A DNA stretch of 64,000 bases from an uncultured candidate division Zixibacteria bacterium (GTDB lineage: Bacteria > Zixibacteria > MSB-5A5 > UBA10806): assembly GCA_963801605.1 (NCBI GenBank), contig CAWDFP010000006.1, forward strand, positions 1,280,001-1,344,000, in the 5' to 3' direction. Made by a program: the position numbers and the translations under genes. The notes beneath the pieces are model-generated. The model had not been told where the DNA came from and did not search any database. It saw only the letters and a program-made list of their open reading frames with translations. Shown piece after piece: positions 33,909 through 56,530 of the stretch (positions are counted from its first letter, which is position 1; the number at the start of each line of letters is the position of its first letter).

Positions 33909-33916
33909 TCTCCTTC

Positions 33917-34739: not shown

Positions 34740-34740
34740 T

Positions 34741-37726: not shown

Positions 37727-38149
37727 CTAATTCAAAATCAGCGTTACGTCTGTAGCGCCGTTGACATTGACGACCGTACCGCGAGCCACGTTACCGCCGG
37801 CGGGATCGTACGCGGCCAAAACAGGTGCTTGCCTGACAGCCCCGGAGCCATTAACCACCACTCGATTGCCAACTGCCGGCGTTGTTGCCGCTGATGTTAA
37901 AGTGCAGATACCGCCGACCTGGACTGTAGCGACGCGCTTGCCGTTATCGACATCGGTCAGCGAAAGATCGATGAGCTTTCCGAGCAGAATGCCGCCATTG
38001 GTTCCCAGGCTGATTTCGTAATTGCCCACGATACTTACAGCCTTGCCAATATCAATATCCTTGAGATCATCAAGATTGGCGGTCTGATGAATCTTGAATG
38101 TCGCTGTTTGAAAGCCGATACTCTGCAAATTTTGGTCTCTTACTGCCAT
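37727..38149 (-). CDS. Capsid decoration/cement-like protein (DUF2190-like)
   Basis: 140 aa Gly/Val-rich 'IGKAVSI.G', 'ATVQVGG', 'PAVGNRVVVNGSGAV'; immediately upstream of the capsid gene. Confidence 0.6.
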   Translation of the reverse strand: MAVRDQNLQSIGFQTATFKIHQTANLDDLKDIDIGKAVSIVGNYEISLGTNGGILLGKLIDLSLTDVDNGKRVATVQVGGICTLTSAATTPAVGNRVVVNGSGAVRQAPVLAAYDPAGGNVARGTVVNVNGATDVTLILN

Positions 38150-38483: not shown

Positions 38484-38798
38484 CTATTTGCCGCTGTTAT
38501 AATTCATTGGTCTTGATGTTTTTGCCTTTGGCTGTTCCAGTATGGTCTCAATAGCCGAAAGCCTGGCAACTACCTCATTTTTGAAATCGAAGAGATCGCC
38601 CTTGGTGGAAAACCGCTCATTGATTGTGGCCTCAAGGCGGGCCAGACGAATATCGAGCTCGGCCACATAATGTTCCTCGGCCTTGGTGGCAAGCCCGACG
38701 CGAAGGCCGGTATAAGCGGCATAGTATCCGGATAACGCCGCAGCTACAGCCATGGCAAAGCTTATCAGGTATTTCACAAGCGGTTCTTTGGGAAACAT
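38484..38798 (-). CDS. Small protein with N-terminal TM anchor and coiled coil
   Basis: Hydrophobic segment then heptads 'LDIRLARLEATINERF'; GGGAG RBS. Confidence 0.55.
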   Translation of the reverse strand: MFPKEPLVKYLISFAMAVAAALSGYYAAYTGLRVGLATKAEEHYVAELDIRLARLEATINERFSTKGDLFDFKNEVVARLSAIETILEQPKAKTSRPMNYNSGK

Positions 38799-38810: not shown

Positions 38811-39524
38811 TTACTCGTCTTTGATAAGAAGGCATTCACGGCCGCCGAATAGCCCAACGGCTGTGCGTCGATCTGATTCAGTCACCGACCTGATTTCAGC
38901 GCAACTCACCCGGATAACTTTCTTAATATCTGCCGAAAGCTTGTCGGTGATATAGGTGCCTCTAACCGATCCTTTGTAGACCAGCGATGTTTCCAATACC
39001 TGCGAAATACCGCCGTAAATGAAATGGGGCGAGTCGGGGCCAGCGCCAGGATCATGTGGACATCGCCGGATATCCTCGCCGCAGATTGAGCATTCGGGAA
39101 CGGTGTAGATAAATGAAATCGAACACTCTTTTAAAATGCCTGAATCGATCTTAAGAAGCAGTTCGTCGCTTCCCTCGGCTCTTGGCCAATAGAAGTAGCT
39201 CTTAAGCCAGAGAATCTCGCCGCCCTCTTCCAGCTCAGCGTGAAAGGTGCGCGCCAACGGAGTTTCGGAACGGTTATGGCCAACGAGCACCGGGGTATCC
39301 GCAATCAGCTCGCAGAGTTTTGACAGGTCCTCCCGACGAAATCGTCCTCCATGCGAATTGATCATATCGTTGACCACATACATGGCTCGGATATTGACAT
39401 TTTCCGCAGTAGCCGGCTTGGGCGGTTTTATGATGCTGTTGATTTTGTCAATCAGGGCAGCCCGGCGATCTTCCGGATCACCAAGTGATAAACTGCCGAT
39501 TAGCGTTTCAGTAATCTTTTCCAA
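38811..39524 (-). CDS. Prohead maturation protease-like protein with Zn-ribbon
   Basis: GGAGG RBS plus TTG 39524; 'PVLVGHN' (His), 'IDSGILKECSISF' (Ser), 'CSICG....CPH', 'ETSLV'. Confidence 0.65.
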   Translation of the reverse strand: MEKITETLIGSLSLGDPEDRRAALIDKINSIIKPPKPATAENVNIRAMYVVNDMINSHGGRFRREDLSKLCELIADTPVLVGHNRSETPLARTFHAELEEGGEILWLKSYFYWPRAEGSDELLLKIDSGILKECSISFIYTVPECSICGEDIRRCPHDPGAGPDSPHFIYGGISQVLETSLVYKGSVRGTYITDKLSADIKKVIRVSCAEIRSVTESDRRTAVGLFGGRECLLIKDE

Positions 39525-39553
39525 TTTTCCTCCTTCCACCAAAAAGCATTTAT

Positions 39554-39603
39554 AAATCAAAATGCACTTTGAACGCGTTTTAGAGTCGCTATAAGAGCGT
39601 GGA
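39554..39603 (-). promoter_or_regulatory. Shared upstream motif, copy 1 (capsid operon)
   Basis: Minus strand TCCACGCTCTTA-N10-AAAACGCGTTCAAAGTGCATTTTGATTT; both blocks are identical to 54337-54385. Confidence 0.8.
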
Positions 39604-39871
39604 AAGGTAGGGGGGAACAATCCTTTGACGGAGAGAGGACGATCGTTCGGTTTTTATGAAAATCGTCTACGAGAGTACAAAATAATTTTTTTGACAGGAT
39701 TATTTGAATGTTAGAACAAACATGGCTGTAAACATAATCCTATGCAGAGTATTTCATTATCTGCAACTGGAATATTTACTCGATTAGCTTATATAGAAGT
39801 TTAGGGCTGGTTTTAAAATTATAAATCGTTGATATTACGGCATTTGCATTTTCTTTAAAAAGAAAACCCGA

Positions 39872-39887
39872 AGGCATGGATATTGCA
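39872..39887 (+). promoter_or_regulatory. Sigma-54-like -24/-12 promoter
   Basis: AGGCATGGATATTGCA: GG(39873-74)-N10-GC(39885-86). Confidence 0.5.
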
Positions 39888-39898
39888 ATTAATTACAA

Positions 39899-40040
39899 CC
39901 GATGAGCAATTCCGCAATTAAGACCTGCCTCCTGACCGCTGCTTAGCGTGTTTTGCGCCAGTCCCTTATGGGGCGGAGCAATCCGCACCACCTCGAAGAC
40001 CGGCTTACCCCCCCCTCCTTAAGACCGGTCTTCACTTTTT
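39899..40040 (+). ncRNA. Candidate small RNA with anti-SD (CCUCCUU) terminator loop
   Basis: No ORF in the track; GCGGA-GCAA-TCCGC hairpin, then GAAGACCGG...CCGGTCTTC hairpin plus T run; related to 60706-60747. Confidence 0.45.
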
Positions 40041-40079
40041 ATATGATTTGCGAGTGATGTTTAACTCTGTTTAGTGCTA

Positions 40080-40301
40080 TCAAGCCGGTGGTAGTTTTGA
40101 ACCCCAAAACGGCACTTTCAAGATGGGAGCGAGTATGCAACCATTGATGATCCCCAATGTCAACGGAAGTAATCCGAATATCGCTATAATCCATCCGCCC
40201 GTACCGTGGATAACGCTGATTCCAAGGATAATCAGGACCAAGCCAACCACTATTCGCAATCCCCTTCCAAATGCAGTGGCCATGAATCGTGCTAAACCCA
40301 T
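40080..40301 (-). CDS. YgaP/DUF2892-like small membrane protein
   Basis: 'GRGLRIVVG', two TMs, 'GLLPL..G...C.LAP'. Confidence 0.75.
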   Translation of the reverse strand: MGLARFMATAFGRGLRIVVGLVLIILGISVIHGTGGWIIAIFGLLPLTLGIINGCILAPILKVPFWGSKLPPA

Positions 40302-40440
40302 CTGGTTCTCCTTTTTTTCATGGTTTGAATAATATCTATGTTGTCCAACGATCTTTCAGGGTCATCAAGTTTCCGCTGGCGAGACCTATCAGGCATATCA
40401 AAGCGATTCGCGGAATCAATCATTGTTGTGGTTACAGGTC

Positions 40441-40743
40441 TCAAATTCTACTAATTCTAACTAAGTCTATAAGCGTATCTCCCGCTAGGCAAAAGACTGC
40501 CTGAGCTGGACTCAATTTGGCCGAAATCCGCACTCGCAACCCCTCTTGCTGGAACGATTCCGGTAAGATCGTAAAACCATACCGATTGCCATCATCCATG
40601 GCAATTCCCCAGCATCCGCCTTCAAGGCCGCTGTAAACAATCGAGCCATTCCCGGTAATGAGATTCGCCCCCTGGTCGCTGCATCCACTAACCAGAACAA
40701 AACAAATGATTCCCAGCCCAATCGCGAAAATTAATTTCCCCAT
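40441..40743 (-). CDS. Small lipoprotein, paralog of 63500-63787
   Basis: Lipobox 'VSGC', 'CSDQGA', 'FQQEGLRVRI'. Confidence 0.7.
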   Translation of the reverse strand: MGKLIFAIGLGIICFVLVSGCSDQGANLITGNGSIVYSGLEGGCWGIAMDDGNRYGFTILPESFQQEGLRVRISAKLSPAQAVFCLAGDTLIDLVRISRI

Positions 40744-40871
40744 ATTGTCCTCAACTTGATCAGCCGCGAAAATTATAACTATGCAAAACGAATAAATACC
40801 CGCTGGAAATTTACCATCTTTCAGCCAATTGTCAATCAGATTGCATAAAAATCAATAGCTATTGCAGGGTA

Positions 40872-40895
40872 GTGTCGGGTCCTCGAACCCGACAC
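40872..40895. repeat. REP-like palindrome, copy B
   Basis: GTGTCGGGT-cctcga-ACCCGACAC. Confidence 0.75.
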
Positions 40896-41088
40896 AAATA
40901 AACATTGGCGGTTGGTTTCAAGACATAACGGTCCCCCGGATATTTTTCACTTAACAAAACTAATAAATTATTCGTATATTAATAATCTCGCGGCGGTCCT
41001 CATCCTGGTTTAACCAATTCAGGCTTTTATTTCAATTTTTGTTGGATTTGGATTGCAATTTTACGGGCGTTGTTGAACAGGTAATACG

Positions 41089-42333
41089 ATGATTAAAGGT
41101 CAGATAAAAGAATATCTCGCTCATATACGGATGTTTTCCAAAAACGCCCGCTGGTTTTTATTCGCGTCGTTTTTTATGGGGTTCGGCTATTCCATCGTCT
41201 GGTTGCTTTTCAATCTTTATCTAAAACAACTTGGATACCAGGAAGGCACTATCGGCACTATCCTGTCGGCGTCATCTTTGGGGACAGTATTGATCGCCAT
41301 ACCGGCGGCGATAGTAGTGGATCATGTGAGGGTCAAACGAGTTTTGCTTCTGGCAACGGCTTTGAGCTCGTCGTCGTTTATTATGATGGCGCTTTCCAGC
41401 AGCGTTTGGCCGCTGCGCTTTTTCTCCGGCTTTTCGGGAGCGATGTTCACCGTGCATTCCGTGGCGATCTCACCATTTTTTATGCGCAATTCATCACCGC
41501 AGGAACGCTCTCATCTGTTCGGAGTTGATATGGCGATGGAGACCTTGTCGGGCTTCTTCGGCACTTTTATCGGAGGTTTCATTCCGAAATATCTGCTGTT
41601 GCAGGGAGTCTCGCTGCTTCATGGCTATCGCTTTACGATCATCGGCGGTGTAACTCTGGCATTGTGCTCGATTATTTTTTATGCAATGATAAAGTCAGAC
41701 AAACCGGCCCGCACAGGACGACTTAAGTTATCGGAATATTTCGGCTCGCGAGACTGGAAGACCATCATTAAGCTGGTTACTCCGCATTTTCTGGTTGGCA
41801 TGGGCGCTGGACTGGTGATACCGTTTCTGAATCTGTACTTTTTCGATCGCTTTCACTTGCAGTCCGATCAAATCGGACGAATCTTTTCGTTCGGATCACT
41901 ATTTACCGCCGTGGGGTTTCTGCTGGGACCAGTGCTGGCCAAACGAATCGGGCTGATCAAGACTGTCGTGGTTACCCAGTTTCTATCGATTCCGTTTTTC
42001 CTGATTTTGGCTTTCTCGCACAATCTGGCGCTCTCGATTGTCGGTTTCCTTTTCCGGGGATGCTTGATGAACCTGGCTTGGCCGATGTACAATAATTTCG
42101 CCATGGAGATGGTGCCTGAGGATCAGCAGGCTGGAACCAATTCGGTTTTGTCGCTGGCCTGGAGCGCCTCCTGGATGGTCTCGGCTAATATCGGCGGACA
42201 TATCATTCAGAACTACGGCTTTACTGTGGTGATGGTAGTTACTGTGGCGCTGTATCTGACATCTACCACTTTTGCCTGGATGCTGTTCCGTCACAAGAAA
42301 ATGATGGGGCGGGCAACCGCGCCTCTTAAATAG
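41089..42333 (+). CDS. MFS transporter
   Basis: About 12 TM helices, 'LFNLYL', 'GAGLVIPFLNLYF'. Confidence 0.88.
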   Translation: MIKGQIKEYLAHIRMFSKNARWFLFASFFMGFGYSIVWLLFNLYLKQLGYQEGTIGTILSASSLGTVLIAIPAAIVVDHVRVKRVLLLATALSSSSFIMMALSSSVWPLRFFSGFSGAMFTVHSVAISPFFMRNSSPQERSHLFGVDMAMETLSGFFGTFIGGFIPKYLLLQGVSLLHGYRFTIIGGVTLALCSIIFYAMIKSDKPARTGRLKLSEYFGSRDWKTIIKLVTPHFLVGMGAGLVIPFLNLYFFDRFHLQSDQIGRIFSFGSLFTAVGFLLGPVLAKRIGLIKTVVVTQFLSIPFFLILAFSHNLALSIVGFLFRGCLMNLAWPMYNNFAMEMVPEDQQAGTNSVLSLAWSASWMVSANIGGHIIQNYGFTVVMVVTVALYLTSTTFAWMLFRHKKMMGRATAPLK

Positions 42334-42608
42334 CTTGATATTTCCGATATAGCGATCGGAAAGGGGATCAAGACAAGCATTATTGATGTGATCTTTTTGG
42401 GATCAATAATACGGTCATGGAATATGCTTTAGATAACCCCCTGAAACCTTATTTCATTTTCAAGAGTATATTAATTAAATGGGAAAAATAAACCCACAAT
42501 ATCGAGTCGCCCCCTTCAGGGCGGCTCAAGTTCTTTATGCAATCCTCTTCAATTTTGGCATATCAGTTAGGATACAAACGGTTTGATATCATAGAAATCA
42601 GGTGGCCT

Positions 42609-43490
42609 TTGAGCCAATTAAATCAAGTCGAGGAAGTAGAACAAATAAATAGCGAGCTATTAAAGAGCAATATCGCCGCGTATACGCGCCGAGCCGGGCG
42701 CGAAGCATCTGGCAGCTGGTAAACTCGATGGTTCCTTTTGCGTTGCTATGGGTTGCGGCAACTATGCCCTGCAGTACTCATTCTGGCTGGCATTGCCGGT
42801 AACACTTCTGGCCAGCGGCTTTTTGGTGCGGATCTTTATAATTTTTCACGATTGCGGGCATCAGTCATTTTTCAGGTCGCGCAAAGCCAACGACTTCTGG
42901 GGGCGAATCACAGGAGTGATAACATTTACACCCTACCACTACTGGAGCATAAATCACGCCAAGCATCACGAAACGTCGGGCAATCTCGATCAACGCGGCT
43001 TTGGAGATGTCTGGACCATGACAGTCGCCGAGTATAACCGTGCCCCTCTCAAGTTGCGCCTCAAGTACCGGCTGTTCCGCCATCCGTTGGTAATGCTTCT
43101 TCTGGGACCGCTCTTTATTTCGCTCATTACCAACCGGATCGCCAAGGGTAAGCCGGATAGACGGGAGATAATCAGTGTCTATGGCACCGACCTGGTCATC
43201 ATAGCAATCGGGACCGCGTTTAGCCTGATCATGGGGCTGAAATCCTATCTCATCATTCAAGCGCTGACATTGCTGGTCGGCCTGGTCGGCGGGATCTGGC
43301 TGTTCTATGTCCAGCATCAGTTTGAAGGTGTTTACTGGGCCCGCGAAGGCGAGTGGGATTTTATCGCTGCGTCTCTAAAGGGAGGTTCATTCTACAAACT
43401 TCCGAAATTGCTCAACTGGTTTACCGGAAACATCGGGTACCATCATGTGCATCATTTGATGACCCGAATCCCCAACTACAATCTGAGCAG
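42609..43490 (+). pseudogene. Membrane fatty-acid desaturase, frameshifted and 3'-truncated
   Basis: His boxes 'HDCGH', 'HAKHH', 'YVQH', 'HHVHH'; desaturase-like sequence ends at 'PNYNL' about 43485. Confidence 0.75.
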
Positions 43491-43963
43491 ATCAAGTAAG
43501 ACCAACGTATGGCGTTATCATCATTGCCGATAATCCTGAATATGATGCCATGCACCAGGAAATCCAGGGGCTGGCGGCCGCGAAAATAATCCCCGATTTG
43601 AGGTTGCCTATTATAGTATAACCGTCACCGAGAAAATAGCTGTGCGAGGTAAAAATTACAAAGAACAGAACAAGAATGATCCCAATCGCAAGAAAGATGA
43701 CCCTTGACTGTTTTATTGATAATGATTCGACTAAGTTATTAAGAGCCTGACCAACCTTTTTCTCTACATTAGGGATACAAAGGGCAAATAGAATGAATAA
43801 AAAGAAAAGCCTTATCGAAATTGGGAAAATCCTTACGGAATCTAGACCCCCACAGCAGCCATTGAGGGTTAAATGAGGCTATTACAGATATTATCGCCAG
43901 GACTAAAATAATTATATTTATCCTTATAGCGTTATTCGAAAATTCTGTATAATCGGGCTTCAT
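43485..43963 (-). pseudogene. 5' fragment of a paralog of the 13372-15345 membrane protein
   Basis: 'ASFNPQWLLWG', 'YFLGDGY', 'QPLDFLVHG...WSY' align with 'ASFNPQWHLWG', 'HFMGDGY', 'EPLDYYLHQ...WSY'. Confidence 0.7.
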
Positions 43964-44037
43964 TAGTATGAATATACAATCCGCTCATTGATTATTCCAA
44001 TTGCAATTATAATTTCTGTGCGCCTATAATTTCCCCG

Positions 44038-44985
44038 ATGAAATCGCGCGCCCCCAAAAACAGAACCATTTCGCTCTCAAATACCGACCGCAAGCGGTTA
44101 TCAAATAAATTGATTTGCCCCTATTATGCCGAAACGAAAATAATTCCGCTCAATTCGACTATCCTTGGCGATTACACGCAGATAGTCCCCTTTATGCCTC
44201 AATCAAGCGTTGATTTGATGATTCTCGATCCACCCTATAACCTAAATAAAACCTTCAACGGGAATTCCTTTAAGCGGCGCTCCGTAGATGATTATACAAG
44301 TTATCTAAAAGAAGTCCTGGAGGCATTGATCCCCCTGCTCAAACCCACCGCGACCGTTTATATCTGCGGGGATTGGCTGAGTTCGGCGTCAATCTTTGCG
44401 GCGGCGTCAGAGTTGCTTGTTGTCAGGAACCGCCTCACCTGGGAACGGGAGAAGGGGAGAGGCGCCTCCAAAAACTGGAAAAATTCGTCCGAGGATATCT
44501 GGTTTTGCACGGTGTCGGATAGATACACTTTCAATATCAAAGATGTAAAATTGCGCCGAAAGGTTCTTGCGCCTTATCGCTCTAATGATGGCGCGCCGAA
44601 AGACTGGAATGAAACCGCATCCGGCAACTTCCGCGATACGGCGCCGTCCAATATTTGGACCGATATTACAATCCCGTTTTGGTCGATGCCTGAAAACACC
44701 GATCATCCCACCCAAAAGAGCGAAAAGCTGATCGCCAGGCTAATTCTGGCATCGAGCAATCGCGGCGATCTCGTGTTCGATCCCTTTCTCGGGAGCGGAA
44801 CAACATCGGTAACAGCCAAAAAGCTTGGACGAAAATATCTTGGTATCGAAATCGAGAAGGAGTTCTGTCTCCTCGCGGAGAAACGGTTGGAATTGGCTGA
44901 CGGCGAACCTTCAATTCAAGGATATACATCAGGAATTTTCTGGGAACGCAATACGTATTCCGAACAGACTAATATAAAACGATAG
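44038..44985 (+). CDS. Orphan N6A/N4C DNA methyltransferase (beta class)
   Basis: 'DPPYN' before 'HPTQK' and 'DPFLGSGTT'; no adjacent endonuclease seen. Confidence 0.9.
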   Translation: MKSRAPKNRTISLSNTDRKRLSNKLICPYYAETKIIPLNSTILGDYTQIVPFMPQSSVDLMILDPPYNLNKTFNGNSFKRRSVDDYTSYLKEVLEALIPLLKPTATVYICGDWLSSASIFAAASELLVVRNRLTWEREKGRGASKNWKNSSEDIWFCTVSDRYTFNIKDVKLRRKVLAPYRSNDGAPKDWNETASGNFRDTAPSNIWTDITIPFWSMPENTDHPTQKSEKLIARLILASSNRGDLVFDPFLGSGTTSVTAKKLGRKYLGIEIEKEFCLLAEKRLELADGEPSIQGYTSGIFWERNTYSEQTNIKR

Positions 44986-45097
44986 TATTAAATTACCTTT
45001 TCTGCGCTTTGATTATAAAAATAATAATGGCGCCATGTCTTGCGACATCGCGCCATCTGCTTTTCGACAGTCATTACTGCCGGATTCGCCCTAATGC

Positions 45098-45376
45098 TTA
45101 ATAACGGGAACGGCCCATATTGCTGCGGTTCTCGGTGCGTGGACGAGCCTCGCTGACATTAAGAGAGCGGCCATTAAGCTCTTTGCCGTTCAAACCGGCA
45201 ATAGCGGCTTCGCCTTCGGCCTTTGAGGACATTTCCACAAATCCGAAACCCTTGGAATCGCCACTGAACTTATCCTTGATAATATTGACTGATACGATCT
45301 GGCCGTGGGCTTCAAATGCCGTGCGAAGATCGCCTTCCGCTGTGTCGCGGGATAGATTGCCGATGTATAATTTCAT
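45098..45376 (-). CDS. RRM RNA-binding protein
   Basis: RNP2 'LYIGNL', RNP1 'KGFGFVEM'. Confidence 0.93.
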   Translation of the reverse strand: MKLYIGNLSRDTAEGDLRTAFEAHGQIVSVNIIKDKFSGDSKGFGFVEMSSKAEGEAAIAGLNGKELNGRSLNVSEARPRTENRSNMGRSRY

Positions 45377-45772
45377 CGTTTCTCCTTTTTCTCGCTACTT
45401 GTTGCCCTGGGGGAGACTTTGGCAAGAATGAATGATTCATGCGCACAATCGCGCTTTTGTCTCCAGATTAATATTTTGACAAGGGCTGATAATTCAAGTC
45501 TTGAGAAAACTTAAGGCGGAGATATGTTTACATCGATTAGTGTAGCAAATAATTCCTCGAATGTCAATAAATATCGCGATATAACCTGTATCGTGTTGCT
45601 GTGATACCGTTTATGGTAATGTGATTTTTTTAAGATTTAACATATTCGGTTGGCAATTTTTTGTTTAATGCCTAAATATATGATTTTAATAAAATTTTAA
45701 TCCAATCGTTTTCATAAATAAATAAGCCCCTACCGTGAGATAGGGGCCTTAAATTTTGTATGTATTTCTGTA

Positions 45773-45982
45773 TTAATTTAGTCTGAGCACATTCTGGGCC
45801 TGAAGTCCCTTGGGGCCTTCAGCTAATTCAAATTGTACTTCCTCTCCCTCTGCGAGCGATTTAAAACCATCACCCTTGATCGATGTGTAGTGGACGAAGA
45901 TGTCTTGTTCGCTCTCATTTTGTCGAATGAACCCGTATCCCTTTTTACTGTTAAACCACTTAACTTTACCCACATTAGCCAA
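45773..45982 (-). CDS. Cold-shock protein
   Basis: 'GKVKWFN..KGYGFI', 'DIFVHY'. Confidence 0.95.
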   Translation of the reverse strand: MANVGKVKWFNSKKGYGFIRQNESEQDIFVHYTSIKGDGFKSLAEGEEVQFELAEGPKGLQAQNVLRLN

Positions 45983-46256
45983 TAGGATACCTCCTTATCA
46001 AGAATTTCTTGGTTAATACTGTCAAAGATTCTCGAATTTCCCGGAGCATTGTCAAGTGACGGCATCATGCCAAAATACAATTATATAATATAGTAGATAA
46101 ATAGGTCAGTCAAGGGAAATCTGCATTTTGTTATAGTTTTTATTAGCATTGCCTCCCCCCCAAGTTTGCGCTTTTTTTTCAAATGAATCCCAAATGAACC
46201 GGAAATGATACCTTTCGCCGCTCAAATCCGCCATCTATTAAGGCAAAAACGGAGGC

Positions 46257-46751
46257 GTGATGGCCAGAATTGATTATGTTGAACCTGAAGTCTTACAGTC
46301 ACTTATCTCGCTTGAAACGGCACCGGTTGATCCCCGGTTGAAAGCCGAAGTCGAAAAGGCTTTGGCACAGCTTCCAGAGCATCTGCAGGAACTTGTAATT
46401 GCCCGAATTTATCAGGGCAAGACCCTTAATCAGATTATGCGACTTAACAATCTTCCGCGGGAATTGGTCATTTCGGAACTCAAGGAAGCCATGCGCCAAC
46501 TTCGATTGCTCCTGGCCGATTTTGTTCGCAATCGTTGGAATATCGAAATAGGCCCGATTTGCAGGATCTGTGTTCATCCACAACGCGAAAATATCAATCG
46601 AATGCTCAGAAATAAACCGGATTCCCAATCCTGGGGATTATTTGGAAAACATTTGCGGCGCGAAATTGGAGAGAATATCGGTCCCCCGAGGGTTTTTATT
46701 ACTCATCTGAATCATATTGAAAGGAGTAGAAATGACTATGCGGGCAGATAA
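46257..46751 (+). CDS. Sigma-70 region-4-like HTH fused to a CxxC...HxxH Zn-binding domain
   Basis: 'VEKALAQLPEHLQELV..R..QGKTLNQI' then 'CRICVHPQRENI...THLNH'. Confidence 0.6.
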   Translation: MMARIDYVEPEVLQSLISLETAPVDPRLKAEVEKALAQLPEHLQELVIARIYQGKTLNQIMRLNNLPRELVISELKEAMRQLRLLLADFVRNRWNIEIGPICRICVHPQRENINRMLRNKPDSQSWGLFGKHLRREIGENIGPPRVFITHLNHIERSRNDYAGR

Positions 46752-46962
46752 GCATCACGTTCAAATCCGCCTATCGATGCAGACCAAAAAGGAACTCCGC
46801 GACGCCTCCAAACACTTGGAATTGACGGAATCGGATGTTATGCGAAGCGCCCTGTTTTTCGGATTGCCGATCGTGGTCGCTATGAACGAATTGCAGGGGG
46901 AATTGATAAAACGTCTGGTTAAGAAACTGAAGGGTGAGGCGCGAATTCACCGATCCGGCTGA
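46732..46962 (+). CDS. Ribbon-helix-helix-like small DNA-binding protein
   Basis: 'VQIRLS..TKKEL...S..L..TESDVMRSAL'; AAGGAG RBS; coupled to the upstream gene. Confidence 0.55.
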   Translation: MTMRADKHHVQIRLSMQTKKELRDASKHLELTESDVMRSALFFGLPIVVAMNELQGELIKRLVKKLKGEARIHRSG

Positions 46963-47519
46963 CACGCGAAATTATTGCGCCGGCCCGGTTCATTTCGTCT
47001 ATTGCCGCTGCCGAATCGCCCGCTTTGACCTCAACTCCCATGATAGCATCGGCAAGTAAAACGACCTTGAATCCGTTGGCAAGAGCGTCTAGTGTGGTGG
47101 CCTTGACGCAGTAATCTGTTGCCAGGCCGCCGATGAAAAGACGCTCCACGCCGGCGTCCCTCAACATTTTGGCCAATTTCGTTCGCTGGAAACCGGAATA
47201 AGCTTCTTTGTCCGGATCGCTGCCTTTTTTGATCTGAGTTGCTTTCCCGATTTTCAAGCCGGGATGCAACTGCGATCCTCTGGTTCCGGCTACGCAGTGC
47301 GACGGCCAAATGCCCCCCTGCTCTTTGAACGATATGTGGTTTGCGGGATGCCAATCCTGCGTGGCGTAGATATGTTTAAAATATGGCTACGAGAGCATTT
47401 AGGCTCTCTATTATCGAATCCCCTCCGGGAACCGGCAGGGCCCCGCCGGGACAAAAATCGTTTTGGACATCGACAATGACCAGCGCGTCCTTTTCCTTAT
47501 CGATTTTAATCTCATTCAT
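46919..47519 (-). CDS. pncA: Nicotinamidase/pyrazinamidase, frameshifted
   Basis: Reading from ATG 47519: 'ALVIVDVQNDFCPGGALPV', 'TQDWHP', then 'EAYSGF', 'GLATDYCVKAT'. Confidence 0.85.
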
Positions 47520-47717
47520 GTCATATTAAATTGCGTTCGCCCGAAAACTGTTCCCTCGATTTATCATTACGATAAGATAGGAGTATAATGGATTAATGAT
47601 ACATGTGGGATGCTCTGCAATTTCGATTGCAGATTCTATTCCGGGCCGATATATTTCCGGTAGGAATTTCGAACTATGAGAAATAATTTAAATAGATTCA
47701 AAAAGATGGAGCCGATA

Positions 47718-48893
47718 ATGAAAAAAGCAGCAATTCTAATGCTCGCTCTTTTGGCTTTGGTTCAAGTGGCGTCCGCAGTGGAGTTCACCGGTTCTTATGC
47801 CGATGTCAAAGCTCAGGCCATCACCCAGGGAAAGCCAATCCTGATCGATTTCTTCGCCGAATGGTGAAGCGCCTGCAAGCAGTTCGCTGGTGCAGTGAAC
47901 TCAAATGCCGAGATTCAAAAAGCGCTGGAACCGGTCATCCTTTACCGTGTGGATTGTGAAAAAGGCGCCGGTAGGGATTTGGCCAAAGAATTTAATATCA
48001 GGGCTTATCCCACATTTATCTTGGTTAATAAAGATGGGCAAATGCTGGATATTTGGCTGGGTTTCGAAAAGGCCAGTTTCATTAAAACTTTAGACGATGC
48101 CCGCACCGATCTTACCACAATCGAGGAGAAAAAGGCGCGTTATAAAGCCCTTCCCGATTTACGGTCGGCGGCAGTACTGGGCCGATATTCCTCGGCGATA
48201 GGCGAATATAAAGATGCGGTTAATTATTTTCGTAGGGCCTATGTGCTTTCAAGTGATACCAGGGCTGATTATGTTTTCGATATTTTTGAAAACACCGCCA
48301 GTGGCGCTAGAAAAAATATATTTACATACGACGATGTTTCCCAGGCAGCCGAGGCTATCATCAACGGACCGAAAAGAGATCCCTGGCAAGTCGTTCAGGT
48401 AATTACCGAGATGATCGGAATTGCTAAAAATCTCAATAAAACAGACGATGTCGCCAAGTATACTCAGGCCGGGCTTGACGCTACATCCGTAAGCGATGAT
48501 CCCGATATCAAAAACATGCACTCCGAGTTGATGGTTGAATTCGCATTATCTGTTAAGCATGATACCGCCACGGCAGTTGAATATAAAAAAGCGGCCATGC
48601 CGGATGGTTGGCAAACCGATGCCGGCAGGCTTAATGAATTTGCCTGGTGGTGTTTTGAGAATAAAACCAATCTTACCGAGGCCGAGCAACTTTCCCGCAA
48701 GTCAATCGAATTGGCCAAGCCGGGACGAGAAATATCGAATTGCTATGATACCTTAGCCGAAATTGTAAACGCTAAGGGCAATCCCAAAGAGGCGCTGGAA
48801 TTATCGAAGAAAGCCGTAACCGAGGATCCCTCGAATAAGTATTTCCCCACGCAGGTCGAACGGTTCCAAAAGGCCGTTACGCCATCGAAATAG
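47718..48893 (+). CDS. Exported thioredoxin-fold selenoprotein (WUxxC) with C-terminal TPR-like repeats
   Basis: ORFs 47676 and 47895 are in the same frame, joined by TGA 47865-47867: PILIDFFAEW-U-SACKQF; cis-Pro 'AYPT' downstream. Confidence 0.85.
47873..47895 (+). promoter_or_regulatory. Candidate SECIS hairpin
   Basis: CTGCA-ag-CAG-TTCG-CTG-g-TGCAG beginning 5 nt after the UGA. Confidence 0.5.
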
Positions 48894-48911
48894 GATTTAT
48901 CTGATTGGTTT

Positions 48912-48940
48912 AAAGGCGGCCCGATTAGGCCGCCTTTTTT
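48912..48940 (+). terminator. Rho-independent terminator
   Basis: AAAGGCGGCC-cgatta-GGCCGCCTTT followed by a T run. Confidence 0.8.
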
Positions 48941-49046
48941 TATATTATGCCCCTGAATGAACGCTTTTTGAGTATTGAATCGATTACAGAAAAGGCCCCC
49001 TCTTTATTCTGGGCAGGCGTGGCGAATTTTTTGCGCCTCTCAATCT

Positions 49047-49589
49047 CTATTCTTTGGTTTGGCCTTCTTTGGCCATTCTTTTAATTTCCTTTTTTAAAGC
49101 TTTGGCGAAATTTTTGGCGGTGTTCTTAAATATTTGATTACCTTTAGTTGCCCAATCGCTGACCTCGGCGCTGAAATTTCCAGCAAAAATGGTATTATTA
49201 CTATCTGCCCTGTCTATAAGTCTCAAAGCTACTGTTAGCTTGGCGTTACCTACGCCAAAGCCGATAAAGAATCTGGCTACTCCACTGCCTCTCTTAAATT
49301 CTATAACGCTTCCATTGATTTCATAATCGACCTTATCGTCTTTGCTTATCATGGTAAAAATATCTTGAGTACTGAGTTGATAATCCAACTCAGTCTTTAG
49401 CATTTCTATTTCCTCGAGAGTGGGTTTTTTTTCGATATCCATATTAGCGGGTAATTCGTCTACGATACTGCCTATCGAACAAAATTTGGAAGCCTCAATT
49501 GGCGCTTGCAGGGGCTTTGTTATCACATAAGGTGTGCAGGATATAATAAAACAAAATACAACTGCGGCGCAGAATTTCGATATCGTCAT
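49047..49589 (-). CDS. DUF4410-like lipoprotein
   Basis: Lipobox 'IISC', 'GSGVARFFIGFGVG'. Confidence 0.7.
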   Translation of the reverse strand: MTISKFCAAVVFCFIISCTPYVITKPLQAPIEASKFCSIGSIVDELPANMDIEKKPTLEEIEMLKTELDYQLSTQDIFTMISKDDKVDYEINGSVIEFKRGSGVARFFIGFGVGNAKLTVALRLIDRADSNNTIFAGNFSAEVSDWATKGNQIFKNTAKNFAKALKKEIKRMAKEGQTKE

Positions 49590-49630
49590 ACAATCCCTCC
49601 TTTAGATTGCGGTTCAAGATTTTACTTCAG

Positions 49631-50560
49631 CTAGAACATTGTGACAGCCCTTAGTTTCAAATCAAATATATAGCCATAGAATACTTCTGATTTGTGAGCG
49701 TTATTTCCTGATGAAACCGCCACTAAGTCCAAAGTAAAACCACAGTCGAGGCCCATTCTCTTTGAAAACATTTTTATTGCTCCGAATCCGAACATAAAGG
49801 CAAATTTGGAATTAGATTGACTATCGTTGATATTGCCGATCTGGCCCGTATTAATCTGTCTTACGGTGGCCTTCGTTGTGGTTGTATGCGTGATTATCCC
49901 TATTCCGCTCAATCCATACCACATACTCCTGGAATCCTGAATTCTGGAAAATGGCTGATGAAAATTGACAGCAGCCTCATAGCGCGTGGCATGAAAACCT
50001 AAATCCTCATTGAGAATTTGTATATTAGGATCATACGATATGAGATGCATCTTTTCGCTGATTCTCATTCCGGATCGTGAGACTATAAACTGCAAGGCTA
50101 CTTGATGACTCAATGCTAATCTAAAATCGCCTTCATAACCAACTCCGGATTTAATTCCGTCATAATAATCCCCCGCCGGGATGCTTAAATTGCCTCCAAT
50201 GGAAAATAAACCAACCCAGGACTTAGCCATCGCGGCTTTGTATTCGTTTGATTCGCGGGATACCCATTCTTCCTTCTGAGGCCTATAATACCCCTGCAGC
50301 ACTCTCGAGGTTACATCGCGTCCGCTTTGATCGGTTATTATTTTTATATCACTGAAGCTGACATTTATTTTTGACCCCTGATATTCAAGCAATACCGTTT
50401 TATAAAAATCGTTCACCTCGAATTTGACATCTTTATATTGCTCGCCGGACTTAAGTTCAAAAGTGGCAGTTTCGGAAGCTTGTATTAGGGAAACGGACGT
50501 TATTAACAATAAAATTAATGCAATTAAAACTCTAGGGGTAATTTTGGACGAAATTATCAT
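49631..50560 (-). CDS. Outer-membrane beta-barrel protein
   Basis: Signal peptide, OmpA-like strands, C-terminal Phe; start reassigned to ATG 50560 after GGAGG. Confidence 0.6.
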   Translation of the reverse strand: MIISSKITPRVLIALILLLITSVSLIQASETATFELKSGEQYKDVKFEVNDFYKTVLLEYQGSKINVSFSDIKIITDQSGRDVTSRVLQGYYRPQKEEWVSRESNEYKAAMAKSWVGLFSIGGNLSIPAGDYYDGIKSGVGYEGDFRLALSHQVALQFIVSRSGMRISEKMHLISYDPNIQILNEDLGFHATRYEAAVNFHQPFSRIQDSRSMWYGLSGIGIITHTTTTKATVRQINTGQIGNINDSQSNSKFAFMFGFGAIKMFSKRMGLDCGFTLDLVAVSSGNNAHKSEVFYGYIFDLKLRAVTMF

Positions 50561-50798
50561 TCGAACCTCCGCTGTTTTTCCCATTTTAAAATTGAACGAC
50601 TTGCGAGTCAAGTTAAATATGGAACCAATTCTGATAATCGAGACGTGTTTACCTCCCGATCGGGGGAAAGTATTATTGACATTTCTATAGAATCTATATT
50701 CATATTTATCCAGACTTTTATAGTCATGCTATGAAGAACGCAATAATAAACCGGGGCTTAATACAAACCCCGGTCATGTATTAGTATTGCATCTAAGA

Positions 50799-51359
50799 TT
50801 ATCTTTTTATCTTTTGAGTGGCTTGGCCGCTTACCAACGCATTTAACGTAATTCGTTCCTTTTTCACGGTAATGTCATGTTCGAGTGCAGTGACTCGAGA
50901 CCGAAGATTATTTACCTCGCGCCTGACCTCACGCTCGTGGATGGCTTTTTTAATTGCCAGGTCGATCTCATCGAGCTTAAAGGGTTTGAGAATATAATCG
51001 GAAGCTCCCATGCGAATCGCCCTAACGGATGAATCGAGAGTCGGAAATCCGGTCATCAGTATTGTTACTATATCAGGATTAATTTGGGTGATTTTCTCGA
51101 TCGTTTCGAGACCATCCATGCCCCGCATTTTCAAATCCACCAGCACAATGTCGCAGGGTGATTTTACCAACAACGAAATAGCATCCTCGCCGCTGCCCGC
51201 AGTTTGTACCTTATAATTTTCCCGTTTGAAATATTCATTAAGAAAATCAAGAACAAGATCGTCGTCATCGACAACCATCAGCGATGGTTTTTCAACATTT
51301 TCCACTCGCTGTTGATGTTCTATGGTATTTTTGGTTTTATAGGATGTATCTTGTGCCAT
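50799..51359 (-). CDS. Stand-alone response regulator receiver with coiled-coil tail
   Basis: 'VVDDD', 'DLKM.GMDG', 'ILMTG', 'GASDYILKPF'. Confidence 0.88.
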   Translation of the reverse strand: MAQDTSYKTKNTIEHQQRVENVEKPSLMVVDDDDLVLDFLNEYFKRENYKVQTAGSGEDAISLLVKSPCDIVLVDLKMRGMDGLETIEKITQINPDIVTILMTGFPTLDSSVRAIRMGASDYILKPFKLDEIDLAIKKAIHEREVRREVNNLRSRVTALEHDITVKKERITLNALVSGQATQKIKR

Positions 51360-51742
51360 TTATCCCTCTTAAAAAAATGGTTTGACTGCCAGTCTGTCGC
51401 CTCTATTAAAGGCATCCATTAACATTATCGGAATATTTGACAAAAGATTTATGGGCTGAATTGAAAGTGACAGCCATCCTCGATCAAGGGGTAAATCGAT
51501 TATAAAGGTGTTTCCACGCTTAAAGTGACCACAAATAAACTTATATATGCCAGTTATGAGCATTTAATTAGACTTAGCTTTTTATGCATATCAAATAAAA
51601 TGAGTCTTTTAGAATGAAATTTGTTAAAAAAATAGGGCTGCGAATGTATCAATTCAACAGCCCTTATACTCAAAATACAATTATATTTTGTTCAGCGCCG
51701 CCAAGTATACTTGTAATTCCTGCTCCGACAGGCAAAAGTCAT

Positions 51743-53416
51743 TTATTTTATAACCATCATTTTTTTGGTTTCCGAAAAAGTGCCTGTCTCAATTCGATAG
51801 AAGTAGGTGCCTGATGGCTGATTGCCGGAGTTCCAGGTAATTTTGTGATAGCCCGCTTCCTGGTAGTTATCAACCAATACCTCTATGCGCCTGCCGGTAA
51901 TGTCATAAACTTCAATGCTAACGTGAGATTGCTCCGGAAGGCCATACGCAATAGTCGTTGTCCCATTAAAAGGATTTGGATAAGATTGTCCAAGAACATA
52001 ATCGGATGGCACAGTCTCGTACTCTTCATCCGTCTCATCTTCAAATTTCGACATAAAAACATTTCCCGCGCGGATTCTAAAATTGCGATTTGATCTGGCG
52101 TTGGCCATATTCCCGAAAGTATCGCGCACTGAAACCCTAACACGGCAAGTTCTCGACGATACATTTGGGACTATCCAATTATATCTATGAGGATCCCCCG
52201 ATGTCCAATCCGCGATCATCGTCCAAATAGTCCCTGCATCGATGCTGTATTCCAGTTTATAGGCCGCTACCCCAACGTTATCATTATCGGTCCATGTGAT
52301 GCTATAGGTATTAAATCCTCTTAAATTTTGGCCACCGTTGGGATTGATTAAGGTTAACGTAGGGATAGTATTATCCCTGATGGTGAAATTAGCATTTGAA
52401 AGATCGCTGCCGATAGCCCCAAAGGCGTCTCTGCATGAAATTCTTATCTTCGCGCTTATTGTGGGATTGGGGGGTACGGTCCAGGCAAAAGTATGAGGAT
52501 CCCCTGTTGTCCAATCGCGAATTATGAGCCAGGTGGCGCCTGAATCAGCCGAATATTCCAGTTTGTGAGAGGCAATCCCGCCGACTACATCGCTATCGGT
52601 CCAGATAATATTATGCGCAGAACCAATATCCCAAATTTCGCTTCCGTTAGGCGCGCCAACTGTAACCAGAGGATTATCGTTTTGCGAACTGGGAACAACA
52701 AAGGAATCCGGTCTGGACCACAGGCTTGAATCGCTTAGATCCCTGGCCATCACCCGACAATGCCAATAGTATTTTACGGCGCGATTTAAGCCCGTGTATG
52801 TTACCATTGCCAGTGAATCTATCAGGCTGTCTGCTGATATTGATGGGTTTGAAAAATTAGATGAGAAATCTAATGCGAATTGGTATTTGATTGGTAACGG
52901 TGCCCCCACCGTATCTGCCTTAAGCGTGGCCGACGCCTGCACTGAATCCATAACGGCCGGCCTTGGATTCGGAGTCATTAGTCCCCCCGCAAATTTCCTG
53001 ATTACATTTGATATTACCGAGACATTACCGGCCCGGTCATAAGTCTTAATGGCGAGATAGTAAGGCGCCCCGCGATTAAGCCCGGAGAATGTAAAGCTCT
53101 GAATTGAGCCCGCAGGAAGAGGAAGCGGTGGATTGGGGATACTTGGAGCCAATCCCCAATTTAATTCCGTAATAATAGTACTTGAGCATTTGATGATATA
53201 ATGATCGGCGGTCCCGTTATTCCCATCATCGCCTGGCGCGGTCCAATGAATAGTCATTTCTCCGGGGACAGTCTCGATTGACGCCGGCGAAAGAGTTATA
53301 TCATCTTTAAAAGCGGGTTGTAGATGTACGGATTGTACAGCATATAATGTTGAGAATTGCAGCCCCCATAATACAATAAAAACCATAAATATGGTTTTTC
53401 GCCTCGATAACGTCAT
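51743..53416 (-). CDS. Secreted FN3/Ig-repeat protein with PNPFN-type C-terminal sorting domain
   Basis: 'WTAPGDDG', repeated 'PNG.E/Q..I.WTD..LEYS.D.G..W', 'YPNPFN.TT.I.Y..SGTYFYRI..KKM'. Confidence 0.8.
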   Translation of the reverse strand: MTLSRRKTIFMVFIVLWGLQFSTLYAVQSVHLQPAFKDDITLSPASIETVPGEMTIHWTAPGDDGNNGTADHYIIKCSSTIITELNWGLAPSIPNPPLPLPAGSIQSFTFSGLNRGAPYYLAIKTYDRAGNVSVISNVIRKFAGGLMTPNPRPAVMDSVQASATLKADTVGAPLPIKYQFALDFSSNFSNPSISADSLIDSLAMVTYTGLNRAVKYYWHCRVMARDLSDSSLWSRPDSFVVPSSQNDNPLVTVGAPNGSEIWDIGSAHNIIWTDSDVVGGIASHKLEYSADSGATWLIIRDWTTGDPHTFAWTVPPNPTISAKIRISCRDAFGAIGSDLSNANFTIRDNTIPTLTLINPNGGQNLRGFNTYSITWTDNDNVGVAAYKLEYSIDAGTIWTMIADWTSGDPHRYNWIVPNVSSRTCRVRVSVRDTFGNMANARSNRNFRIRAGNVFMSKFEDETDEEYETVPSDYVLGQSYPNPFNGTTTIAYGLPEQSHVSIEVYDITGRRIEVLVDNYQEAGYHKITWNSGNQPSGTYFYRIETGTFSETKKMMVIK

Positions 53417-54336
53417 TCATCCTCCTTGAACTAAACTTGTTGACGTCTTTACAGCCCGCTTTTCACCGTCAAACGGACTTTTTTATTTTGGCGATTATTT
53501 TATTAATTAGATCGTAGATATTTCTCTGGGAAATCGATGCGATCTAATTCAATTTAGTTTATTTCGTCGAAGTTGAATCCCTCATTCAACAATTGACGAA
53601 TTTGCTCAATAGGCTTCCTCCATATTCATCCATTTCGTAATTATCGAGCTCACAATCAAAATTAATGCCATGAATTTAGCTACGGCACAATAAACGACCG
53701 CCTTGTATCTGCATTGAACTCCTTATATTTAAGGACTTCAATACACCTTGGCTTTGGGCCAGCCCGCCTTTTGTCTTAAATTATTATTGTTACGAACTAG
53801 AGGATACTCAACACGAACTATTTGTACTATTTAAGAAGTCGCAGAAGAACCCTTAAAGCATCCCACCAATTACAACTTAACCGGCTCAGTCATATATCTC
53901 ACGGCCGGTCGCACGCCCCTTCTGAGAGCCTGCCTAACGCATATAGTGCATTAATCATCAGCTCGTCAAGAGTTATTTGTAACATTCCTAAAATATTGTT
54001 ACTAACACTTGTGTTACATAATTATCTATACTTATTTGGGATACACGGGATATTTTGAAGATTATTTTTATGCCGTAATCCTCTTAAAAAATTAAAAAAC
54101 TATTATATTTCCCGTTATAAAATGATTTGATCAGAATTTTCAATCGAAAGTCTTCGAACTTGGGCAATAAGTGTATCTAAAACCTTAGATCGATATTCAA
54201 ATATATAGGTGTCGACCGATTTATATGATTTTAGCCCTATTAAATTGAATGAAGATGCATCCGCCCTGAGTGAATAATCCAAGGTAGACTTCTAATTACA
54301 CACTCCTCTCTATAAACAGATATATCTAAAATTTTC

Positions 54337-54385
54337 TCCACGCTCTTAAATGTCCTCAAAACGCGTTCAAAGTGCATTTTGATTT
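54337..54385 (+). promoter_or_regulatory. Shared upstream motif, copy 2 (portal-terminase operon)
   Basis: TCCACGCTCTTA-N9-AAAACGCGTTCAAAGTGCATTTTGATTT. Confidence 0.8.
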
Positions 54386-54429
54386 CCCAAGCCTATAAAA
54401 GTGAAGAGATGATGAAAGGAGAATCGTTA

Positions 54430-55710
54430 ATGTTTGGATTTAAGAAAATACCTAAGGTACCACAGGGTAATCTAGCTGCCAATGCCCGAATGATCAAAGC
54501 GCATCAAGCGCGTGAAAAGGCGGGATCGCCGTTAAAATCCGGATCTGCAACCATTTCTTTTCCCGCAGAATATGGTTTTGCGGAAAGGGTAACGCTTTAT
54601 CGATTTCTAAGAGAGAATATCCCAATTATAAGCGGCGCCATCTGGATTTGGTCCCGCCTCTGTGCCAGTCCAATGGAATTCCAGTTAAGCGGAGGCCCCA
54701 GCAAGCATAATATCGCTTTGCTCAAATCGCATTTAGACAAACTTAATACTCTGCTTTCGCCCAACGCTTACTATAAATCCGGCGGCCTGGACAGGCTTTG
54801 CGATCTCTTTTTCAGTTCCCTTTTTATCGATGGCGCCTTTGCTGGAAATATCGAGATCGATCAATCCGGAAAATTGGCCGGTTTTACTCCCTGCGATATT
54901 AGAAATTTATCTTTCGAATCTGATAATGGTCAAAACGGTTATCCCGGATGGAAAATATATCGCCAAATCGAGGGCAATCGGGAGCTTCTCGATCCCGCTA
55001 CTTTCATCTACATCCCTCTTGATGATGATGCTTGCGATCCTCGTGGCAAAAGCATATTGCAGTCGGTCGGTTTTGTCAGCCGGTTGGAACAAAAACTTCT
55101 CGACGATATGCAAAAATCGCAGGAAAAAGCCGGGTATAACAGGTTACATGTTCTTATTAAAAAACCCGAAAGGCGTTTAGGCGAAACCGAGCAAAATTAT
55201 ATCGATCGCGCTAACGGCTATTTCGATGATACCGTCACGCTTTTTTCCGGAATCAAACCATCAGATTCGGCAGTCACCTGGGATGATATCGAAATTAAGA
55301 CAATCGGGCCATCGTCGGGCGCGGGAAGCGCCAGCAACTCCTGGTATCTCTCGCATCGGGCGCTGGTCGAGGATATCTGCGCCGGTGTGCATCTCGATCC
55401 ATTCATGTTAGGCTATTCTTACTCATCGACCCAAACCTGGGCCAGGTTCAAATTCGAGCTTGTTCTACGTGAGATTATATCAGTCCAGAAGCAGGCGGCC
55501 AAATTTTTCGAATGGCTGGTCAACACTCATCTGGCCCTTGAGGGTTCAAGTTCGGCAGTATCTGTCAAATTCGATAACGATCGGGTTAATAGTGTTCTTG
55601 AAAAATACCGTGCCGAGCGTGAAGCCAGCGATCGGGTTATCGAGTTATTCAAGGCTGGCCTTCTTACCAGGGAAGAGGCTCGCGAAAAAATCAATGAAAG
55701 GATCGATTGA
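54430..55710 (+). CDS. Phage portal protein
   Basis: About 426 aa; 'LYRFLRENIPIISGAI', 'SLFIDGAF..I', 'DPRGKSIL', 'EDICAGV.L.PFMLG', 'WLVNTHL...V.FD', 'GLLTREEARE'; upstream of terminase. Confidence 0.75.
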   Translation: MFGFKKIPKVPQGNLAANARMIKAHQAREKAGSPLKSGSATISFPAEYGFAERVTLYRFLRENIPIISGAIWIWSRLCASPMEFQLSGGPSKHNIALLKSHLDKLNTLLSPNAYYKSGGLDRLCDLFFSSLFIDGAFAGNIEIDQSGKLAGFTPCDIRNLSFESDNGQNGYPGWKIYRQIEGNRELLDPATFIYIPLDDDACDPRGKSILQSVGFVSRLEQKLLDDMQKSQEKAGYNRLHVLIKKPERRLGETEQNYIDRANGYFDDTVTLFSGIKPSDSAVTWDDIEIKTIGPSSGAGSASNSWYLSHRALVEDICAGVHLDPFMLGYSYSSTQTWARFKFELVLREIISVQKQAAKFFEWLVNTHLALEGSSSAVSVKFDNDRVNSVLEKYRAEREASDRVIELFKAGLLTREEAREKINERID

Positions 55711-56048
55711 CCATGCAGCCATCCTCATGCGCCATCTGCGATTCGCCATTGCGCTCCGAAATCGAAAAACTTGATTCCCAATGGAACGACATTCATACTG
55801 TTCAGTGGGCCCGTAAACAAGGACTAAATATCAGTCGTTTTTCGCTTGTAAAACATCGAACCAACCATTTGCAATCAGCGGCCCCCGGAAATAATGGCAA
55901 CGGCGGGAAAACACTTGATAATAAACCCGCAGAGATTGTCGTGCTTAAACCGTTAAAGTCTGCTATTAAGGAAATGGTACAACCATCGGAAAATAATATT
56001 CCGAAAACAAAACGTAAAAATAATGGCCAACGGCATTCCCGAAAATAG
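55707..56048 (+). CDS. Zn-binding HTH-like protein (CxxC...HxxxH), possible packaging/DNA-binding subunit
   Basis: 'CAICDSPLRSEIE...ISRFSLVKHRTNH'; overlaps the portal stop. Confidence 0.55.
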   Translation: MTMQPSSCAICDSPLRSEIEKLDSQWNDIHTVQWARKQGLNISRFSLVKHRTNHLQSAAPGNNGNGGKTLDNKPAEIVVLKPLKSAIKEMVQPSENNIPKTKRKNNGQRHSRK

Positions 56049-56504: not shown

Positions 56505-56530
56505 CGCGGGCAGCCCGTTGGCATACCCTG

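Follow-up and report, generated by a model that had tools for sequence, protein, structure and literature searches.

The stretch of DNA considered here, positions 1,280,001–1,344,000 of contig CAWDFP010000006.1 (64 kb, called the window below), comes from an uncultured candidate division Zixibacteria bacterium and holds phage-type head and packaging genes in two operons: a protease–capsid operon on the minus strand and a portal–terminase operon on the plus strand. The same 28-nucleotide sequence stands before both, and the question that this raises is what such a sequence does there. Our best explanation is that it belongs to a dedicated late-type promoter of an inherited, phage-derived regulon for particles resembling gene transfer agents (GTAs), a reading to which we give a probability of about 0.82. 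We favour a promoter because the motif recurs at a fixed place before both operons, before a distant lysin gene and before a set of scattered non-coding elements. The genome of the window is called G000 and the other G numbers denote the genomes of relatives.

Copies of the motif in the window and in the genome

The two 28-mers lie at 39554–39581 on the minus strand and at 54358–54385 on the plus strand, are identical in sequence and form the longest inverted pair within the window; in 100 shuffles there was no match, even with up to three mismatches allowed. A 12-mer starts at 39603 (minus strand) and 54337 (plus strand), with spacers of 10 and 9 nt to the respective 28-mer, and the motif ends 29 nt before the TTG start of the protease gene and 44 nt before the ATG of the portal gene. 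On re-measurement all of these sequences, spacers and distances were as given in a preliminary description of the window, which had listed two copies. Seven had been missed: in the whole genome (3.06 Mb in 14 contigs) the 28-mer is found nine times, eight times exactly and once with a single mismatch, and a search allowing up to six mismatches returned no others. The nine copies precede the protease–capsid operon, the portal–terminase operon, an unlinked gene for an M15 peptidase and six non-coding elements. With so few copies, all of them before particle genes, a lysin or one family of elements, the motif is not a generic high-copy repeat, a possibility that had been raised against a regulatory role.

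The conserved sequence is longer than the 28-mer: an extra box lies ∼45–50 nt upstream, and on the downstream side conservation continues as far as GGAAGG. Among 14 family genomes, G000 and G001 alone showed the 12-mer and the further upstream box. The bipartite form described initially, present at both window sites, is specific to this lineage. Nor are the two palindromes that had been singled out within the 28-mer the conserved feature; the part conserved across the family is another, imperfect dyad with the core AAA-N4-GTNCA-N3-TGCAT-N3-TTT.

Conservation of the motif in relatives

The positions conserved among 72 sites of 14 genomes read AAA-N4-GTNCA-N4-GCATTT-N2-TTT-N8-C(C/T), followed by a purine-rich GAA. 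The matrix was refined on regions upstream of the portal, protease and M15 genes of the family, f1, and its order-mates, f2. When each genome was left out in turn, 40 of 43 such upstream regions scored above shuffles (p ≤ 0.01), versus none of 18 control regions before an internal gene, in a test that is not fully independent, one iterative procedure having served to pick the sites as well. Anchoring errors account for two of the three misses, and there the motif was found on re-anchoring. If G000 and G001 are kept out of the matrix, the nine G000 copies still come out on top with 30–37 bits, the next site scoring 17. The orthologous operons of relatives thus carry a homologous motif. It starts 59–62 nt before the protease start in all 13 family genomes examined, and since these include genomes in which the cluster is unbroken, the motif can stand inside the cluster as well as at the head of an operon. 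As for a promoter, position and strand are fixed before the first genes of the operons and kept in orthologues, and the motif is absent before the internal gene.

An exact search had matched just 2 of 61 genomes; the idea of a motif private to a few genomes was dropped, as the matrix recovers it widely. A profile built from 27 sites was run on 13 other family genomes, five order-mates and two f6 genomes. Neither f6 genome gave a match, and both also lack matches to capsid, portal and protease. For f2 the family profile is too weak, and it says nothing on elements there. Extra strong sites were found in several family genomes (for example, ten in G002, nine in G004 and ten in G008) in a survey in which not every weak profile match was retrieved.

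Promoters of different genes are identical at 22.3 of 28 positions within a genome (n = 14) versus 18.5 of 28 between genomes (n = 192), and the likeness within a genome extends to positions that are free in the family. The striking identity of the copies in G000 is thus explained by concerted evolution within genomes, which may proceed by conversion or by the tracking of a fast-evolving factor. In other lineages portal and protease are preceded by a different shared motif of their own, in 18 of 40 genomes (p ≤ 0.05, by a model-free comparison); in G058 it takes the form of a perfect dyad, with 3 nt as spacer and a comparable distance. The promoter motif is duplicated in tandem at L045/L046 in G041, L100 in G008 and L026 in G013. 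A by-eye fit to the sigma54 and sigma28 consensus sequences was also tried and rejected, the spacing not matching.

Lysins behind the motif

The M15 peptidase (171 residues, Pfam E value 6e-17, with matches to endolysin PHROGs) is encoded ∼950 kb from the window operons and stands behind a strong site in G000 and G001. In G003, G004 and G010 a gene behind a strong site encodes an unrelated enzyme of the SLT family, present in 5 of the 14 family genomes; the lysin sites of the M15 and SLT genomes score 20–42 bits. A cell-wall enzyme that is swapped behind the same element is as expected of the lysis slot of a regulon. The motif links loci hundreds of kilobases apart, and it led to lysis genes that are missed by views limited to the cluster, so that release by lysis becomes likely.

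Structured non-coding elements behind the motif

The six G000 elements are ∼260 nt long, and each is begun by the 28-mer. Among the 72 motif sites 39 were classed as non-coding and 33 as coding, one of the 39 being the G010 portal, mislabelled by a gap. The elements of G000 and G001 share no open reading frame (ORF); the reading lengths are 81, 92, 51, 122, 94, 3 and 40 codons. A short peptide starting at the GTG of the element was accordingly rejected; because G000 has indel errors, the argument relies on short forms of the element and on the cases of 3 and 40 codons. Two-sided changes occur in 17–18 of the 73 base pairs of the element, a level reached in none of 500 column shuffles, the covariation coming from seven related sequences of two genomes. 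Short forms of 134 nt, detected by a covariance model in G006 and G009, have the motif at an unchanged offset, and both genomes have kept an element copy beside the same gene. There were five metagenome matches: the motif is in place in two, two lie too near the contig end and one has DNA like repetitive extragenic palindromic (REP) sequences instead. No Rfam 15 family matched the 7 + 11 element loci at gathering level. Covariance-model matches in G002, G024 and G040 were rejected as generic hairpins without the motif.

The elements of G002, G003 and G004 follow the same plan as those of G000. A 5′ hairpin, which starts with GAAGG, has a tip that is palindromic; a variable helix and a short linker come next, then a second hairpin whose loop is palindromic, and last a 3′ hairpin. 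This four-hairpin core measures 90–135 nt, the length in G000 being reached through an inserted domain, and the offset from promoter to element is the same in five genera. Within the first 40 nt, self-complementarity exceeds that of shuffles at 13 of the 39 non-coding sites versus none of the 33 coding sites; a second palindrome is found at 20 of 39 versus 1 of 33, a partly circular comparison as the pattern was drawn from the elements themselves. The loop sequences differ between genera, with self-complementarity kept. In G004 and one G003 copy the loops are self-complementary only through G–U pairs, which points to single-stranded RNA of the transcribed strand. The 3′ hairpin is better than shuffles in 14 of 21 elements; a conformational switch between this hairpin and an upstream repeat was considered and rejected, upstream pairing beating shuffles in none of the 21. 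Of seven short forms folded against shuffles, four have z below −3, two are near −2 and one is not better. The lack of a conserved ORF, the compensated helices and the folds above shuffles, in few independent lineages, make it likely that the non-coding units are RNA genes and constitute a new small structured-RNA family; that they are a functional RNA of the particle system seems to us an even bet.

Some further observations concern these units and their surroundings. The same motif also leads a second type of non-coding unit, which has a loop of the CCCCGGGG type and lacks the second palindrome; such units lie at L110, L115, L120 and L154 (G008), L135 and L139 (G013) and L134 (G005). Viral contigs held no exact element core, and among 121 loose pattern matches from half of the viral-contig collection no site reached at least 20 bits. 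REP-like hairpins of one pattern number 130 in the G000 genome, and REP-like perfect palindromes at 30097–30126 and 40870–40901 flank the head operon.

A candidate activator and a possible mechanism

The best candidate for the factor acting at the motif, at about even odds, is the 163-residue protein encoded from position 46260, which combines a sigma70-region-4-like helix-turn-helix (HTH) with an invariant CxxC-H-H zinc finger. Its profile gives one match each in 117 of 121 phylum genomes, and its PHROGs matches include a transcriptional regulator, an activator and one Q-like family. The zinc finger is related to the ORF after portal (E = 2.5e-5, probability 75%). A small partner gene stands beside the gene in 14 of 20 loci, and no motif was found upstream of the 46260 gene itself. 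The full-length protein was not found in f6 or G002, where there are only partial sigma-factor matches; the f6 genomes have 10–11 sigma factors and no particle module.

In the mechanism that we propose, the imperfect dyad GTNCA-N3-TGCAT, ∼30–40 nt before a putative start at GAAGG, would be the binding site of a dedicated factor, and transcription would begin near GAAGG at all units simultaneously, with the sigma4-like zinc-finger protein as the candidate switch. The joint output would be capsids, a packaging motor, a lysis enzyme and a burst of small structured RNAs, which may pair with one another through their two self-complementary loops. One may go further and picture a tail-less, terminase-filled particle in which the RNAs polymerise through two self-complementary kissing loops and become a component of the particle or of its packaging machinery, in a role like that of a prohead RNA or as marks of packaging sites. 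As a joint claim this is speculative and rather unlikely; if true, it would be a use of RNA that has not been described for any GTA.

The motif is a first handle on how a virus-derived particle system spanning nearly the whole of an uncultured phylum is regulated and on all the genes that belong to it. It leads to a candidate activator that can be tested and exposes what is likely to be a new family of small structured RNAs, and the promoter, the candidate factor and the RNAs are small enough for tests in a laboratory host, for which the organism need not be grown.

Weighing the explanations

Several observations weigh against a dedicated promoter with functional RNAs. The sigma70 TTGACA/TATAAT consensus was not found at 9 of 12 positions or better in the portal copy, the only one scored. 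The SLT genes of G009 and G012 have the right half of the motif only (4–5 bits), which is still the best site of each locus, and no lysin was identified behind the motif in G002, G005–G008, G011 and G013. Two sites in relatives precede other genes: a 29-bit site in G008 (L162:662–1801) lies before a gene for an HTH and metalloprotease regulator, and a 28-bit site in G018 (L178:573–1433, minus strand) before a DnaD-like phage replication gene (phrog_2514, E = 1e-44), which could be a regulon member of a run-off-replication-like kind or belong to a satellite that uses the promoter. The candidate activator was not found in G002, which has the module and ten sites; the near-universal presence of this protein makes co-occurrence weak (one loss, in two genomes, one of them 74% complete), and any of the 14 sigma-factor genes of G000 is a possible reader of the motif. 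As to the elements, the covariation represents few independent events, one short form does not outperform its shuffles (z = −0.1), the second palindrome is missing from ∼18 of 38 non-coding sites and some sites run into AT-rich DNA without structure. The elements are mostly at non-orthologous places, and REP-like hairpins abut five of the six G000 copies versus 28 of 519 non-coding stretches.

The last two features are also the behaviour of mobile passengers, and the six non-coding copies might be a cassette of promoter and hairpin, spreading among REP sequences without any task in the particle. Such a cassette would suit a copy number that varies from 0–1 to 6 per genome, a flanking gene found next to a G000 copy at only 1 of 28 element loci, the decayed look of several sites and the metagenome copy in which REP-like DNA replaces the 5′ part. 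We consider it possible but doubtful, given that the offset between promoter and element is fixed in five genera despite sequence turnover, that helices and loop palindromes are compensated and that a copy has stayed beside the same gene in G006 and G009; moreover, neither terminal inverted repeats nor a transposase gene were seen at the elements, in a survey without a search aimed at transposases. No pair of filled and empty sites was obtained; what looked like the empty counterpart of a G002 element proved not to be one. Alternatively, the elements could act as DNA, as transcription-activated pac/cos-like sites at which the small terminase would start, spreading packaging starts over the chromosome. 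A zinc-finger domain is still present in the probable small terminase, unlike in known GTA small terminases, which according to the available text of PMC11841831 have no DNA-binding domain; the conserved 12-nt dyad is flanked by short repeats, and the same text reports discrete packaging peaks for DsGTA. Insertions of 150 and 25 nt that keep the fold and not the spacing, loop palindromes of which some need G–U pairs on the transcribed strand and a dyad sequence that differs between genera and within G002 nevertheless render packaging sites unlikely.

The remaining alternatives concern the promoters themselves. A general host regulon under an alternative sigma factor would accommodate the 14 sigma factors of G000 and the two sites before other genes, but none of the nine G000 copies is followed by an ordinary host gene, the next-best G000 site falls to 17 bits from 30–37, and f6, with its 10–11 sigma factors, has neither the module nor a profile match; we regard such a regulon as very improbable. 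The preliminary description had also suggested that the two window copies might be recombination sites that invert the 14.8-kb interval between them, to which the perfect inverted 28-mers of G000 and the back-to-back operons of G014 and G041 would correspond. This is hardly credible: there are nine copies rather than one pair, the seven others lying elsewhere in the genome; portal and protease are on the same strand and collinear in 18 of 18 relatives with both on one locus; in most relatives the divergence between copies (17–28 of 28 identical within a genome) would preclude site-specific exchange; and no recombinase is found among the 30 window proteins scanned. An inversion would, moreover, leave both promoter–gene junctions as they are beyond the core. 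A co-regulatory element tying the two loci into one regulon, the role first proposed for the motif, is what its few copies on particle targets and its presence before the operons of relatives argue for at the level of sequence.

Particle genes and other features of the window

The coordinates of the features are collected in Table 1. Head and packaging genes of phage type have been kept intact and single-copy across related species: capsid, portal and protease were matched in 57, 57 and 56 of 61 relatives, the major capsid protein gives one match each in 118 of 121 phylum genomes and the order of the cluster genes is kept. They are distributed over several loci, lysis included, which share the motif and are probably under common control. 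Being single-copy and near universal in the phylum, the two clusters are not two random prophage remnants, in line with the initial argument against such an origin. One distant capsid relative was found in viral contigs, and a search with one tape-measure family gave no match in five of five genomes.

Table 1. Features of the window that bear on the motif and the particle genes (positions within the 64-kb stretch).
Feature	Position	Strand	Remarks
Rest of head operon	31685..35112	−	Proteins of 123, 237, 201, 369 and 149 residues
479-residue β-propeller protein with second β domain	35109..36548	−	Predicted fold with pLDDT (predicted local distance difference test) 92.8
Major capsid protein	36563..37660	−	phrog_3922, E = 4e-67
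140-residue virion structural protein	37727..38149	−	phrog_4588, E = 3.9e-8
104-residue conserved protein, hydrophobic N-terminus	38484..38798	−	No family match
Probable prohead protease, first gene after motif	38811..39524	−	phrog_16951 (unknown function); 56/61 genomes
Promoter-like core before protease–capsid operon	39534..39583	−	Contains the 28-mer 39554–39581
12-mer box, protease side	39592..39603	−	Seen only in G000 and G001
Further upstream pyrimidine box, common to element copies	39628..39637	−	
Candidate activator, sigma70-region-4-like HTH and CxxC-H-H zinc finger	46260..46751	+	Putative role
Small conserved partner gene	46732..46962	+	No Pfam family
12-mer box, portal side	54337..54348	+	
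Promoter-like core before portal–terminase operon	54356..54405	+	Contains the 28-mer 54358–54385
Portal protein	54430..55710	+	phrog_3753, E = 6e-29; matches in 57/61 genomes
Two ORFs (113 + 113 residues), probable small terminase	55707..56364	+	Assigned by position
Large terminase, ATPase and nuclease motifs in frame	56465..57937	+	phrog_2, E = 4.5e-27

The protease label is taken over from the preliminary description and follows from position, as does the small-terminase assignment. The latter gene is a single ORF in G003, G006 and G010, and its first part is a CxxC-H-H zinc finger. The predicted fold of the 479-residue protein matches generic propellers only (Z up to 26.6, root-mean-square deviation 3.3, 315 residues aligned), and no phage nozzle is among the fold matches listed, which excludes nothing. 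In the remainder of the head operon the 237-residue protein is a connector-like lead, those of 201 and 369 residues have signal-peptide-like starts and that of 149 residues is hydrophobic. The starts of this kind, read by eye in two conserved cluster genes at 32197–33908 (minus strand), are unusual for virion proteins, and the length of these genes differs widely among relatives. Conserved ORFs that are whole in relatives are broken or short at 38150–38450 (minus), 33900–34030 (minus) and 55707–56364 (plus), affecting a coiled-coil ORF of 75–137 residues before the 140-residue gene, the 237-residue protein (∼274 residues in relatives) and the split probable small terminase. As many host genes are split too, these are probably indel errors of the assembly. 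Elsewhere in the window there are a selenocysteine tRNA at 13255–13349 (plus strand) and dockerin-like C-terminal coding repeats common to secreted proteins at 25294–25516, 58169–58229 and 59309–59518.

Comparison with known systems

The gene content and the arrangement of the motif suggest a system that works like a GTA or a phage late regulon, and as a GTA it is a candidate. Late promoters of phages, served by activators of the RinA/ArpU, Ogr and Q types, have the activator site over a poor −35 element before terminase or portal, head and lysis genes, a layout that the motif resembles. The Zixibacteria system differs from these in being chromosomal, single-copy and near phylum-wide. The pRNA (prohead RNA) of phi29 is a small phage-associated RNA that oligomerises by loop–loop pairing, using two complementary loops, and serves a non-terminase motor. 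The elements would resemble it as small RNAs with loops able to pair, but the Zixibacteria system has a terminase, each loop is self-complementary and there is no match in Rfam.

In the literature searched, which included few subscription papers, there was no description of a Zixibacteria GTA, capsid or terminase, prophage or such a non-coding RNA. REP/REPIN sequences and putative mobile promoters, as far as the accessible text of PMC3575422 describes them, are like the elements in being dispersed, intergenic, palindromic, close to REP-like hairpins and promoter-bearing; the promoter of the elements is, however, the one that a conserved gene system uses, and from genus to genus it keeps a set distance to the structured body.

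Among GTAs, CcGTA of Caulobacter has a GafY/GafZ switch that acts on the main cluster and on ∼18 accessory promoters, as set out in the available text of PMC11150451. The likeness lies in one dedicated switch for the main cluster and unlinked accessory genes, in a degenerate −35 element and in a regulator, GafZ, with a sigma-factor-like HTH. The Zixibacteria system belongs to another phylum, no long-tail gene was found in it with the one tape-measure family searched and its site is a dyad common to all units; structured non-coding units behind the promoter are not described for CcGTA in that text. RcGTA (GafA; PMC9638019) and BaGTA (BrrG; 10.1101/2024.11.20.624540) likewise have domesticated genes for head and packaging at several loci, under a factor of the sigma-like HTH or Q-like kind whose gene lies elsewhere. 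The candidate factor of Zixibacteria would differ from both, being a protein of 163 residues with a zinc finger that is related to the probable small terminase.

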